This document shows, piece by piece, positions 4,276 to 9,095 of a stretch of 64,000 nt of DNA. The DNA lies in NCBI RefSeq assembly GCF_032062105.1, contig NW_026919405.1:62001-126000 (forward strand), read 5' to 3'. Made by a program: the position numbers and the translations under genes. A model generated the notes under the pieces. The model was not told where the DNA came from, ran no database searches, and was given only the letters and a program-made list of their open reading frames with translations. Origin of the DNA: Saccostrea cucullata (Eukaryota). Each line of letters opens with the position of its first letter. The stretch's first letter is position 1.

Positions 4276-4914
4276 GATTTATACCCGTCGCTCTTTTCCA
4301 TTGGACCGATCTCTGCGTCCTGCAGTGAAATACAAATCCACGACGTATTAGGATCAACTCCTTACTCAGCAACTCAAAGCACTGCGTCATGGCCATCCAG
4401 GCGTAGGAATTCGGGATTTGATATTAGGCAATATCGTTATTTTTACAATGCTCATTGCTCATTGTAATAACTGAATTGTAAAAGCAACTTTCTCTCTCTT
4501 TCTATAATGAAAAAATTACACCTTCTGCATTTGTTATTCATCATTTATTGTATTAAATAACAGAATGTGTAAAACAAAAATAAAGAATTATAAAAAAATA
4601 TATATTTACATTATACATATGTTTTTGCATATAAAGTGAATGGAAATCTATTTCATTCAAAACACCATAACACAGACAGGGTACCAAGACCTTAAAGCAT
4701 GCGTTTTAGTTTGACGACATAATCGTTGAACGCAGAGGAAGTGCGACGTCACGCCACAAGCGAAAATAAAAAAAAATCACGCTCAAATTGACCAGAAGCT
4801 TTTACGTTGCATGGCTGATCCATTATAAAAGTAGCTTACACGAAGGAAAATACATACGTTTTTAATTAGAAATCACATTTGCAGTTAAGGTAGACAGTTA
4901 AAAATGTAAATATA

Positions 4915-5063
4915 AGCAATGAGTCAGTCTTTTTTGAAAGATATATAGTCTCATAACTGCAACGGTGTGTGCAAATAAATTGAGTAACGCGCGTTACTCA
5001 GTTTGTTTGCACACACCGTAGCAGTTATGAGACTATCTTTCAAAAAAGAATGATTCATTGTTT
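4915..5063. mobile_element. Foldback/palindromic MITE
   Basis: Near-perfect ~150-bp inverted repeat centred on gagtaacgcgcgttactc (~4982-4999). Confidence 0.75.
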
Positions 5064-5767
5064 AATAATAATTAAATCCCTAAAATATCGTTTAATTTAG
5101 ACTTTAAACATATCAGATATGATAAAAAGAAGATACCCATACTTTATCCACATTGAATAAACGACGAATAAAAGACAGAGGACTTGGGTTTTATGGTCAC
5201 CATGCTCAATCTGGAAAAGGATATCATTATCCATCCAAACTATTGCCGAGATTTGGCCATTTCTGTCAAATGGACTGATTTTATGTTGTTAAAATAACGT
5301 GCATGGTAAGAAATATAAGAGTCGGAAAAATCTTTAAACTTCTATGACAGAAGTGACAAAACTCTATAAGGAGCTTGACACGTGACTGCCTATATCACGT
5401 GATCCGCGCATGGACAGAACGGTTGCAGATGCGCATTAGAATTGGAGTGGACTACTTTGAAAACTTTTCAAAACTGAAACCCTATATCATTTCTTTTTTT
5501 TTCCATAAAATTATCACGCATGCCAATCAATTGATCACCTTCATGAAATCGAAAAACAAGACAGTGGAAAGTACATCGTCGTATTCCTTATATTTACATG
5601 CTTTTGATTCCGCCAATGCACGTGCTACAAGCCCTGCTTCTGTCTAGCTATTCGTCCGTGCCTATTGATGAACCAGTACATTCATATACAAATAAAGTAC
5701 ATTAACTATATATTTGTAATTCTATCTCGGACAAAGACACTGGAAGTGTAAATATTGTAACACAAAC

Positions 5768-6345
5768 AGATTTCAACAGCCAAATGCGGTTTCAAAAGGA
5801 GATAGTAGTATCTATCAATCAGAGACCAGATTTTGTTATTTGGTCTCCCACATCCCAGCTTGTTATTATGCTGGAACTTACAGTACCGTGGTAGTGCAAA
5901 ATCGAAGAAGCCCATGAGCGGAAAATGAATAAGTACCAGGATCTAGTTGCAGATTGACAACAACGGGCCGGAGGGTGTGGTGTCTCCTGGTGGAGTTGGA
6001 TGCCGTGTATTTGTAGGGCAATCTATATGTGGAGGGCCTTGCGGATTGTCGGTGTAATAGGCACCGAGAGACGATTAACCACTGGACGCCTGGACAGAGA
6101 GGCAGAAATGGCATCCATGTGGATATGGAAGAAGAGAGAGGAGCAGTGGAAAGTGCAACACTAAGACTCAGTGTGTTTGCTTGTGAATGAACATTTATTA
6201 AGTAAATGTGTTGCGCTGTAGGCGGAGAGATGAGTGGTTCCGGGCTTGGACTTGATCACTCCAGTCAGCATACCTCTGGAGATTGTAGAGGACAACGCCG
6301 AAACAACCAATGAAGGAGGATCCACCTGAGGACGGGACCATATGA
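5768..6345 (+). mobile_element. Decayed 3' end of an RLE-type non-LTR retrotransposon (HERO/NeSL/R2-like): endonuclease domain plus 3' UTR
   Basis: Manual translation: RPDFVIWSPTSQLVIMLELTVPW*CKIEEAHERKMNKYQDLVAD*QQR..(frameshifts)..GCRVFVGQS..WRALRIVGV..REAEMASMWIWKKREEQWK*. RPD..ELTVPW..K..KY is the restriction-like endonuclease signature. Stops at 5892 and 5955; missed by the ORF track. Confidence 0.85.
6273..6338 (+). ncRNA. Degenerate non-circularly permuted hammerhead ribozyme-like motif
   Basis: GUA 6285-6287, GAAA 6300-6303, CUGAGGA 6326-6332. Stem III ttgt/acaa; stem I gagga/tccac (1 mismatch); stem II only cc/gg; extra helix cctct 6273-6277 with ggagg 6315-6319. Confidence 0.5.
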
Positions 6346-6352
6346 CGCATCA

Positions 6353-6579
6353 TACATACACTATGATGGTTCCACGATAGGTTGTTGGAGATGTTGACCC
6401 CTAGGTACTTGGCCTTGGTGGTAGTGGCTAGCTCCTTCCCATGGATGTAATATGGGGTTATGCGTTGCTTCCGTTTGGTGGTGATACGGATAACCTCGCA
6501 CTTGCCTGGGTTGAAATGCATTAGCCAGTCTGTTTCCCAATCTTGGAGGTTGTCAAGGTCCATCTGGAGTTGTCTGGCA
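6353..6579 (-). repeat. Duplicated internal fragment of the adjacent LINE RT ORF
   Basis: Matches 7368-7600 apart from a 6-nt deletion (tcaata); encodes MDLDNLQDWETDWLMHFNPGKCEV... Confidence 0.95.
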
Positions 6580-6705: not shown

Positions 6706-9095
6706 TCTTCTTCTTCTTCCGGTAAAGTGAAGGGCCGCTGCTGCGGCATATTCTCACTATGTTTAAAAACGTGTATGTGAGGGGGAGTCCACGCATCTAT
6801 TTACAATATTAAAAACTGATAAAAACATGTCCTGCATGATTTATGGTGTTTTATATCCCTGAATCCTGGTCTTAAAGGACTCCAGGGACATGGCCGTGAT
6901 GGTGTTTTCTGGCAGCTGGTTCCATATCCTGATGGTAGTAGGAAAGAACGATTCCTTGTAGACGTTGGTACGGCAGAATGGGATCCTGTACCGGTGTTGG
7001 TGTCCCCTGGTGGCTGCTCCTGTTTGGCAGAATTGGGGAGGCAGGTCTATGGCAACAAGGGAATGGACAACACGGTACATCATAATAGCCTTTGCTTTAA
7101 TTCTGCGTTGTTGTAGACTTTCCCATTCTAGCCTGTCGATCATCGTTGTGACACTACTGGTGGTGTTGTAGTTATTGGTCACGAACCTAGCTGCCCTTCT
7201 TTGCACAGCTTCTAGTTTGTCGATGTTTTTCTTTGTGTGAGGGTCCCAGACAGTGGATGCATATTCTACCTGGGGTCTGACCAATGTCTTGTAACACTTG
7301 TCCTTGATGTTGCTGGGACAGGACGAAAGGTTCCTCCTTAAAAAGGCAGTGGTGTTGTTTGCCTTCTTACATACACTATCAATATGATGGTTCCACGATA
7401 GGTTGTTGGAGATGTTGACCCCTAGGTACTTGGCCTTGGTGGTAGTGGCTAGCTCCTTCCCATGGATGTAATATGGGGTTATGCGTTGCTTCCGTTTGGT
7501 GGTGATACGGATAACCTCGCACTTGCCTGGGTTGAAATGCATTAGCCAGTCTGTTTCCCAATCTTGGAGGTTGTCAAGGTCCATCTGGAGTTGTCTGGCA
7601 TTCGCCTCTGTAGTGACGGTCCTATACAGAAGGCAGTCGTCCGCGAATAACCTGGCCTTGGACCTCACTCTGGAGGGTAAATCATTTATGTATGTCAGGA
7701 ATAGCAGTGGGCCGAGGACTGTTCCTTGGGGCACTCCAGATGTTACCGGTGCGGTTGGTGAAAAATGGCCCTCGACCAATACCTTTTGTGTTCGTCCGGA
7801 CAAGAAACTCCTGATCCAATTGAGTACGTTGCCTCGTACCCCGTAGTGGTCTAGTTTGGCTAGCAATCTCTCATGTGGGACCTTGTCAAATGCTTTGGAA
7901 AAGTCCAGTAGCACTGCATCGACCTGGGTGTTGTTTTCAATACTCATGGCGAGGTCCTGGATTGTTGTTATTAGTTGGGACTCACAGGATCGCTTCTTCC
8001 TGAACCCATGCTGGTAGTCTGTTAGGATACTGTGATGCTCGAAGAAATTCATCAGGTGGCTGTGGATGATGTGCTCTATTACCTTGCAACACACAGAAGT
8101 CAGGGACACAGGACGATAGTTTGCAAGCTTGATCTTATCACCCTTCTTGAATATAGGAGAGACATTCGCGGTTTTCCAGTCCTCAGGTGTTTGACCTTGG
8201 TCAATGGATGCCTGGAAAATCTTGGTGAGTGCTGGTGTAACAGGGTGAGCCATCTCTTTCAGAAATCTAGTGGAGATCTCATCCGGTCCAGTCGCCTTAT
8301 TGGGGTTGAGTCCTTGCAGGAGCTTCAATACGCCCTTCTCTGTGACTCTAATGTCAGGTGCCGATGGGGTGGAACTAGTGCCTAGGGATGGAATATCGGA
8401 TGTATCCTCTGTGGTGAACACTGACGAAAATTGTTGGTTCAGGAGAGAGGCTTTTGTTTGTGGATCTCCATGAAGGTTCCCGTCAGATCGAAGTGGAGCG
8501 ATCCCATCACTGTCACACTTCTTACCCTTAATGAAGGAGTAGAGTTTCTTACTGTTGGAATCCTCCTGCACCATGTCTGATACGTACGAGTTATAGGCAC
8601 TTTTGCATTCATGTTGGGTTGATTTCTGCAGGCGCCTGTATCTCTGTCGATCCTTATCCTTGCCTGATCTTTTATATGTGTTGTAAGCTCTTCGTTTTCG
8701 TCTTGACAGTTGCTTGATCTTTCTGTTACACCATGGCTGGTTAAATCTACTTGAAGTCCACTTTGTTGGTACGTGCTTCCTGATTGTGTTGAGGCAGACT
8801 GTCTTGAAGGTGATCCAAAGGTCATTTATGGGGGTGTCATGTGTAGAGCCATCAAGGAGGTGTGCCAGGTCGCTGTCAAGGTCTTCTGCCATCTTCGCTG
8901 TGTTTGCTTTCTTCCATAAGTGGATGAGGCGTCTGACCGGTTTCTGTCTGGAAGGCACTATGTTTGTGTCATGACCATGTCATGGTCACTAAGGCCCGGG
9001 CAAGGTATGCACCTGTTTAATAAGGAGGGGCGATTTGTGATGAAGACATCTAAGGTGTTGGTACCTCTGGTAGGAAAGTCTACCATCTGGTTCTG
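6706..9095 (-). mobile_element. 5'-truncated CR1/L2-group LINE
   Basis: APE endonuclease C-terminus (QMVDFPTRGTNTLDVFITNRP..GLSDHD) at ~9090-8975, frameshift near 8970, RT ORF, short 3' UTR and (GAA)n tail at ~6707-6719. No clear TSD. Confidence 0.9.
6841..8958 (-). CDS. LINE ORF2 reverse transcriptase (705 aa open, N-terminally truncated)
   Basis: Motifs KATGPDEI, NYRPVSLTS, QHGFR, LDFSKAFDKV, SGVPQGTVLGPLLF, LFADD, YLGV, TRGH..SFFPTTIRIWNQLP. Confidence 0.95.
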   Translation of the reverse strand: MPSRQKPVRRLIHLWKKANTAKMAEDLDSDLAHLLDGSTHDTPINDLWITFKTVCLNTIRKHVPTKWTSSRFNQPWCNRKIKQLSRRKRRAYNTYKRSGKDKDRQRYRRLQKSTQHECKSAYNSYVSDMVQEDSNSKKLYSFIKGKKCDSDGIAPLRSDGNLHGDPQTKASLLNQQFSSVFTTEDTSDIPSLGTSSTPSAPDIRVTEKGVLKLLQGLNPNKATGPDEISTRFLKEMAHPVTPALTKIFQASIDQGQTPEDWKTANVSPIFKKGDKIKLANYRPVSLTSVCCKVIEHIIHSHLMNFFEHHSILTDYQHGFRKKRSCESQLITTIQDLAMSIENNTQVDAVLLDFSKAFDKVPHERLLAKLDHYGVRGNVLNWIRSFLSGRTQKVLVEGHFSPTAPVTSGVPQGTVLGPLLFLTYINDLPSRVRSKARLFADDCLLYRTVTTEANARQLQMDLDNLQDWETDWLMHFNPGKCEVIRITTKRKQRITPYYIHGKELATTTKAKYLGVNISNNLSWNHHIDSVCKKANNTTAFLRRNLSSCPSNIKDKCYKTLVRPQVEYASTVWDPHTKKNIDKLEAVQRRAARFVTNNYNTTSSVTTMIDRLEWESLQQRRIKAKAIMMYRVVHSLVAIDLPPQFCQTGAATRGHQHRYRIPFCRTNVYKESFFPTTIRIWNQLPENTITAMSLESFKTRIQGYKTP

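Follow-up and report, generated by a model that had tools for sequence, protein, structure and literature searches.

Judging from sequence comparison, a clade of RLE retrotransposons carries in its terminal repeats a real, strongly covarying hammerhead-like fold whose wiring appears to be undescribed. This fold likely cuts read-through RNA to unit lengths, which would be end-joined or circular and would be reverse-transcribed for more than one round. One copy of it lies in the window, i.e. the whole analysed stretch of 64,000 nucleotides from Saccostrea cucullata. The remnant of its host element, a neighbouring fragment and the parts of the fold are the following.

5757..6352, + strand: 5'-truncated remnant of an RLE-type, HERO-like non-LTR retrotransposon, delimited by matches to genomic copies
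5757..6164, + strand: broken C-terminal endonuclease coding stretch (RPD...ELTVPW...ERK..KY) with in-frame stops and frameshifts, the last stop at 6162-6164
6351..6579, - strand: unrelated LINE fragment, 98.7% identical to 7370-7600, standing in place of the last 20-30 nt of the element
6234..6341, + strand: whole split-core permuted hammerhead-like fold, from pairing and covariation
6234..6242, + strand: 5' strand of P0, pairing with 6333-6341 (9 of 9 pairs here) and closing the fold directly after A9
6243..6266, + strand: hairpin Pa (6243-6249 with 6260-6266, mismatch at 6247), joined to P0 and stem II without linker
6267..6271, + strand: 5' strand of stem II (10.1-10.5); 6267 is the G10.1 position, and a second mismatch is at 6270
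6273..6277, + strand: 5' strand of P4, pairing with 6315-6319 (family pairing)
6278..6287, + strand: GA of the kink-turn-like loop, 5' strand of stem III (6281-6286, mismatch at 6282) and N17 (A6287)
6288..6292, + strand: 5' strand of stem I, with A at 6289
6295..6308, + strand: block G, i.e. 3' strand of stem II (6295-6299), G12-A13-A14 and 3' strand of stem III (6303-6308)
6309..6320, + strand: three-base bulge and GA of the kink-turn-like loop, 3' strand of P4 (6315-6319) and one-base link
6321..6332, + strand: 3' strand of stem I (6321-6325) and CUGANGA (6326-6332)
6333..6341, + strand: 3' strand of P0, pairing with 6234-6242 and containing the gg that had first been assigned to stem II

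By analogy, the cut site is predicted between 6287 and 6288.

Many genomic copies match the remnant at 79-84%, starting at 5757-5767 and ending at 6352; the analysed element stretch has at least 41 matches in its own genome (the best 40 of 96 candidates being scored). In the 243 columns of 6100-6352 the remnant shows 17 differences (~7%) from its older subfamily's majority. Its endonuclease stretch, which we take to be of RLE type from motifs read by eye, contains two stops and shares 50% identity with the last 150 aa of a full-length relative. The younger subfamily is complete, with open frames of 1180 and 1182 codons in L081 and L082, respectively. The family has the features of RLE non-LTR elements, namely a single ORF with reverse transcriptase (RT), CCHC finger and C-terminal restriction-like nuclease, the latter as a motif read by eye. 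In the relative L033, Pfam RVT_1 scores above and zf-RVT just below cutoff. Pfam gave no GIY-YIG family match in relatives of the element, which sets them apart from Penelope-like elements as defined by that nuclease and a telomerase-like RT. Named relatives occur in molluscs, lancelets and fish; the viral contigs searched held none. L081 protein is 50% identical over 1097 aa to Tetraodon polyprotein Q7T1J8 / AAN12398. This match constitutes the link to HERO, the Tetraodon protein being presumably of that clade; we take it to be Zebulon and BAC82599 to be HEROTn. Zebulon reportedly occurs in tandem arrays, and the paper on it may discuss the tandem ends.

Further mobile DNA surrounds the remnant. 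Positions 6841-8979 of the minus strand belong to another LINE, whose RT frame (Pfam RVT_1) is open over 712 codons. A second copy of a 221-231-bp piece of this LINE lies 1021 bp away, at 6351-6579, and truncates the end of the studied element. A long inverted repeat at 4904-5077 (87-nt arms, 76%) is likely a small non-autonomous DNA transposon; its miRNA matches are weak and far below gathering scores.

The sequence-only reading had located a permuted hammerhead core here, and its letters are in place: GUA (6285-6287), GAAA (6300-6303) and CUGAGGA (6326-6332), in the order S, G, C. This order lies outside the circular types I, II and III, as had been said. Stem III (ttgt 6283-6286 with acaa 6303-6306), stem I (gagga 6288-6292 with tccac 6321-6325, one A.A mismatch) and the extra helix (cctct 6273-6277 with ggagg 6315-6319), which is P4, all pair as proposed. 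The spacing of ~110 nt from the endonuclease stop is likewise accurate, 6273 being 109 nt after 6162-6164; the core strands stand in S-G-C order 123 nt past the stop. The extent of 6273..6338 was too small, since P0 and Pa widen the fold to 6234-6341. Rfam search detected no hammerhead or other ribozyme family in the window stretch or in the loci of six relatives, because CUGANGA and its stem II strand are separated here.

The window copy is decayed, as had been suspected. Against the majority of 29 other copies it has changes at 6247, 6260, 6267, 6270, 6282, 6289 and 6310, as well as a two-base insertion near 6340. Position 6267 holds A, so that G10.1 is lost, and at 6289 A stands against T in 29 of 29 other copies. 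Four mismatches, that at the G10.1 position included, are spread over stems I, II and III, at least one in each. Owing to the loss of G10.1 and the three further stem mismatches the copy is predicted to be inactive, and it is likely a dead, ordinary relic. Single-strand folding recovered P0 with an unremarkable z of -1.43. A descriptor made of the core letters and stems I and III matched on average 0.67 times per simulated 64-kb window (30 windows, both strands); thus the single window copy is not significant alone. The descriptor of the full architecture had 0 matches in 30 simulated windows, and because of its lesions the window copy fails it as well. The significance of the fold comes from family evidence, not from the window copy.

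At least 73 loci were obtained in a metagenome scan (the best 80 of 535), 41 of them with an ORF end. The search required U16.1-A15.1, GAAA and CUGANGA, with G10.1-C11.1 left free. The core lies 38-203 nt past the ORF end in 29 of the 41 relatives; the other 12 comprise four with the core elsewhere in the unit, five that are cut short and three lacking it. An RNA model built from 26 sequences recovered one of these three (L148, decayed), matched L149 and L173 in part at their contig ends, and detected paired copies at six further genome loci. In L137 and L171 neither descriptor nor RNA model found the fold, although 465 and 275 nt, respectively, follow their ORFs. Family copy numbers are lower bounds, as they do not include a genome-wide RNA-model count. 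Core matches number 31 in the 16,127 bases after ORF ends versus 11 in 531,733 other bases, and nine of these 11 also adjoin element ends. The core letters NUH, GAAA and CUGANGA as well as G10.1-C11.1 are kept across proteins 33-60% alike, whereas all stems turn over.

Several peculiarities of single families were recorded. A CUGAUGA is present in L137:3504-3969, 80 nt after the ORF. L125 and L126 have a unit of ~6 kb, in which 1.6 kb instead of 40-200 nt separate the ORF end from the fold. Several fish proteins (P0028, P0035, P0036, P0041 and others) end in ...RLGRPGEGV; their frame thus seems to enter the fold and stop near the cut site. At L033:5300-5416 and in its copies, an AUG in the III'-P4' loop of the ribozyme opens a short frame, which is in frame with the main ORF and stops just before it (two copies translated). 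L108:85-7266 contains two head-to-tail units only 68% alike. Behind each of them lies a separate version of the fold; this reflects either a chimeric assembly or a switch of template from one family to another.

The strands of the fold follow each other in the order P0, Pa, II, P4, III, cut site, I, II', GAAA, III', P4', I', CUGANGA, P0'. The strand before GAAA pairs upstream and the strand right after CUGANGA pairs farther upstream, forming P0. P0 and Pa make a perfect four-way junction between A9 and G10.1. This wiring was examined in 32 loci under 80% alike, which retain two likely chance core-only matches inside ORFs (L109 2649 and L110 1432); three matches too close to contig ends had been removed. 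Stem II of at least five, P0 of at least four and Pa of at least four pairs occur together in 21 of 32 loci, as opposed to 9 of 992 cross-locus pairings. Pa, which has no free parameter, averages 5.0 pairs within its own locus versus 1.0 cross-locus. Stem II opens with G-C (G10.1-C11.1) in 29 of the 32 loci, and a sixth pair is found in only four.

Covariation was assessed on a sequence-only alignment (A2) of 26 sequences, hand-picked from ~50 matches; the divergent L109, L116, L120, L125, L129, L133 and L161 stand outside A2 and inside the 32-locus test. In A2, 90.3% of 796 cells are paired, slid controls giving 34-43%, and double changes occur in 29 of 31 pairs. P0 is paired in 84.6% of cells with double changes in six of six pairs, upstream stem II in 93.8%, and P4 in 96.1% with double changes in five of five. 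Pair-to-pair double changes were also counted on a tree, the window row excluded, and compared with 2000 null draws: P0 has 18, Pa 12, II 8, P4 15, III 13 and I 6, and for each of the six helices 0 of 2000 draws were as high. Covariation among relatives had been named beforehand as a check, and with six covarying helices, a kept core and the cross-locus result the non-circularly permuted, pseudoknotted, hammerhead-like fold proposed for the intact family is supported.

Two other descriptions of the region were tried. A minimal stem II of one pair was rejected, the upstream strand 6267-6271 with 6295-6299 being the real stem II. P0 as an inhibitory alternative fold was dropped because it is compatible, and does not compete, with the real stem II. 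Between stem III and P4 the fold bends. A kink-turn has a three-base bulge followed by tandem G.A / A.G pairs beside a canonical stem; 16 of 30 loci show a loop like this (bulge plus GA pattern, counted without control), and most of the remaining ones have a one-sided bulge. Rfam yielded no kink-turn match.

Further, we examined the position of the fold in the elements, counting nucleotides past (+) or before (-) the predicted cut site. In full-length copies it is present twice, in direct repeats, which at six loci show 0-2 differences in 142 nt around the site. The unit from repeat to repeat measures 3814-3826 bp, a complete fold stands at each end of the two copies whose frames are open (1180-1182 codons), and L083 is an array of three ribozymes in a row. 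Among the metagenome loci, direct repeats spaced by 3.6-6.2 kb are present in 15 of 73, part of these being assembly overlaps. Of 30 loci found by protein, 22 have their 3' end at +76 to +93, five continue head-to-tail and three break off elsewhere; none ends at the cut site. The nearest end past the site among the 41 DNA matches listed is at 11 nt. All 15 loci picked by a motif reaching +82 have a 3' flank sharing 1-5 nt with the continuing head-to-tail sequence.

A 5' part is present in 30 loci, of which 11 are readable independent insertions, the rest being duplicates, internal joints or too diverged. Their 5' ends map to -95, -143, -145, -244, -401, -495, -554, -847, -864, +65 and +82, i.e. 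nine upstream of the site, two downstream and none at it. The last one, L184, starts exactly at the head-to-tail joint. No scar is visible at the cut site in seven repeat pairs, and no target-site duplications are evident at the junctions of four full-length copies. The sequence-only reading had the fold define the 3' end of the RNA; this does not agree with copies ending ~83 nt past the cut and with the fold being also at the 5' end of full-length copies. Rather than a simple terminator in the 3' UTR, the fold is an element of the terminal repeats.

Distant families (L081, L101, L103, L104, L106, L108, L114, L115, L132, L147, L157 and L116) have all kept a short imperfect repeat array with GAAA-type loops ~90-190 nt beyond the cut site. 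Its role may be to signal where priming occurs or to promote translation of uncapped RNA.

A course of events can be proposed from this arrangement. By analogy to hammerheads, the family fold very probably cleaves, which would happen after N17, and two cuts would free a 3.8-kb unit RNA. Since the cut is bridged by P0, II, P4 and III, which in L081 amount to 9+5+5+6 = 25 bp, the cut ends would re-form the ribozyme and be ligated or read across; a circle or end-joined template is in our estimation rather probable. R2-type enzymes are capable of internal priming. The element protein would prime internally near +83 on nicked DNA and run round, beyond one turn, until stopping. The result would be a partial or full tandem copy, so that a new insertion again carries two ribozymes. 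Replication of an R2-like non-LTR clade via circular RNA, formed by an end-joining hammerhead of novel architecture, with terminal repeats as the trace of rolling-circle reverse transcription, is given an even chance as a whole. A unit RNA with joined ends fits the observed ends: a cut at the last ribozyme would remove the final 83 nt of a linear RNA, yet copies keep them, and a cut at the first would put 5' ends at the site, where none is seen. DNA at the cut site is compatible alike with a ligated circle, an uncut multimer and a clean template jump. RNA reads are uninformative either way: oligo-dT libraries give only 78-104 per raw run on L081 (4.7-kb stretch), too few, and 2-10 on the window stretch, with neither end pile-ups nor informative joints, and none of the runs contains half the words of the intact copy.

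Four other readings were weighed against this one. The fold might cleave only to make the 5' end of a linear RNA, the downstream copy staying uncut and tandems arising when RT jumps to a second cut RNA. Synthesis across non-continuous templates has reportedly been described in a study of R2 RT, and a real RNA 3' end at +83 would be available for priming. Ribozyme processing of 5' ends is also known for R2, L1Tc and RTE elements, according to the accessible text of PMC6765202. We nevertheless hold this to be unlikely, as two identical copies would have to behave differently, the 11 insertions include none with its 5' end at the cut, and the seven repeat pairs are scarless. The strict conservation of NUH, GAAA, CUGANGA and G10.1-C11.1 amid changing stems argues in turn against a fold that stays uncut in the cell or serves as a non-catalytic, protein-binding structure for 3' priming. 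RNA would then extend from +82 to +82 and arrays would come from end-to-end template jumps, but nothing was found to make both ends there. Such a reading, distinctly unlikely in our view, accommodates the fixed 3' ends near +83, a split core for which no precedent was found, and the conserved array just past +83, which could be a 5' structure. It is also suited by the start of L184 at +82, which counts against joined ends and would be expected if RNA ends lay at that point.

A third reading, the original supposition, takes the fold for an ordinary hammerhead of type SGC, whose stem II is the local cc/gg pairing and which defines the 3' end of the element RNA. The S-G-C order is correct, the cc/gg pair is complementary in the window copy, and across loci local pairing slightly exceeds the cross-locus control (mean 1.16 vs 0.81 pairs, p ~0.005). 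In relatives, however, only 59.6% of cells are paired locally against the 93.8% of the upstream stem, and the tree-aware test gives no support (2 double changes, with 168 of 2000 null draws as high). The ends ~83 nt past the site and the fold at both ends of the element add to this, which leaves the idea a very slight chance. The active form could instead be a strand-swapped dimer of both copies in one transcript, which would cut only RNAs longer than a unit and relieve strain between P4 and III. Covariation is blind to cis versus trans, and P4 has to reach from the far end of stem II to that of stem III, the two being coaxial, a tight geometry that counts against a monomer fold. In the available text, Eckert et al. 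flag the same bridging as a difficulty for their short-linker cases (PMC10085705), and Penelope hammerheads are described as cleaving as dimers (PMC4209133, PMC6765202). Stem III is nonetheless long and non-palindromic, and the III-P4 bend that a monomer needs for folding back is present in every family; a dimer is thus highly unlikely in our judgement.

In the literature searched, with subscription papers and Repbase Reports standing outside, no hammerhead is reported in HERO or other RLE elements, nor any ribozyme for HERO. The accessible portions of this literature, PMC7650587, PMC13580325, PMC13725137 and PMC2684134 included, contain no core broken at A9/G10.1. The available text of the type-SGC paper (PMC10085705) shows no split-core case, and its alignments may include one. 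A keyword search of bioRxiv 10.64898/2026.07.22.740005, as far as accessible, returned neither HERO nor SGC. The fold would take non-circular hammerhead permutations from environmental RNA contigs into animal genomes and would break a stated rule against separating CUGANGA from its stem II strand. Published descriptors likely miss it due to this very split. For an R2-like element it offers a testable cause of tandem arrays and of direct repeats at the ends; it further suggests that a ribozyme-and-circle strategy was reached separately by Penelope and RLE elements. If true, a ribozyme clamping its products by ~25 bp would be useful for RNA circularisation tools, and an RLE protein possibly priming on circles for gene-insertion tools.

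The element resembles the HERO clade in its single ORF, the lack of a fixed target and the 50% identity to the Tetraodon protein. HERO insertion is described as mostly non-specific in the accessible part of PMC4640811. With R2, L1Tc and RTE elements, which have HDV-like ribozymes, it would share the release of a non-LTR element from a read-through transcript by self-cleaving RNA. As far as the available text of PMC6765202 goes, those elements differ in ribozyme class, in having one 5' copy and in a cut at the element boundary, while the cut predicted here is internal to the terminal repeat.

Similarity to Penelope-like elements and retrozymes concerns a hammerhead in each direct repeat, one ORF between them and head-to-tail arrays, as described in the accessible text on both groups (PMC4209133, PMC7229834). 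A circular template with more-than-unit reverse transcription has been proposed there too; for Penelope-like elements, with hammerheads in their terminal repeats, the circular-template model is that of Cervera and de la Pena 2014 (PMC4209133). On the contrary, those elements have, by the same texts, a GIY-YIG nuclease or no ORF, and type I hammerheads, often minimal or dimeric, in place of a large permuted fold. The present element has R2-like RT, CCHC finger and RLE, so likeness to Penelope-like elements is limited to the ends.

Among hammerheads, the pseudoknot hammerhead (Zhan et al. 2024, PMC11300833) likewise has a hammerhead core with rewired periphery and an A-rich linker. In its available description, G10.1-C11.1 is kept as a one-pair stem with the pseudoknot loop beside A9-G12, and connectivity is pistol-like, without four-way junction. 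A single unpaired base at the A9/G10.1 spot is known from other hammerheads (PMC4209133, text accessible in part), so the backbone has some freedom there.

The closest resemblance is to type-SGC hammerheads, i.e. HRIMA-1 and a variant, which were shown to cleave (Eckert et al. 2023, PMC10085705, on which, in its accessible text, this comparison is based). They come from metatranscriptome contigs, with none in genomes of known organisms. Both have the S-G-C core order and a short connection between stem I and stem II' (2-8 nt in most cases here, typically 3 nt there). In both, a further helix, here P4, connects stems I and II on their free sides. P4 comes after the 10.x and before the 2.x strand, as the type-SGC interaction helix does. 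Block C is intact in type SGC, the stem II strand coming 1-2 nt after CUGANGA, and Eckert et al. assumed this block to be uninterruptible. Here, in contrast, the 10.x strand comes first, A9 and G10.1 are separated by the four-way junction of P0 and Pa, and both strands of P4 continue via a bend into stem III. The host here is an autonomous retrotransposon, and cleavage is predicted, whereas it was demonstrated there. The present fold may be viewed as a circular permutation of SGC opened inside block C, with P0 and Pa inserted. It is not type SGC as defined but, by analogy, would work like one.
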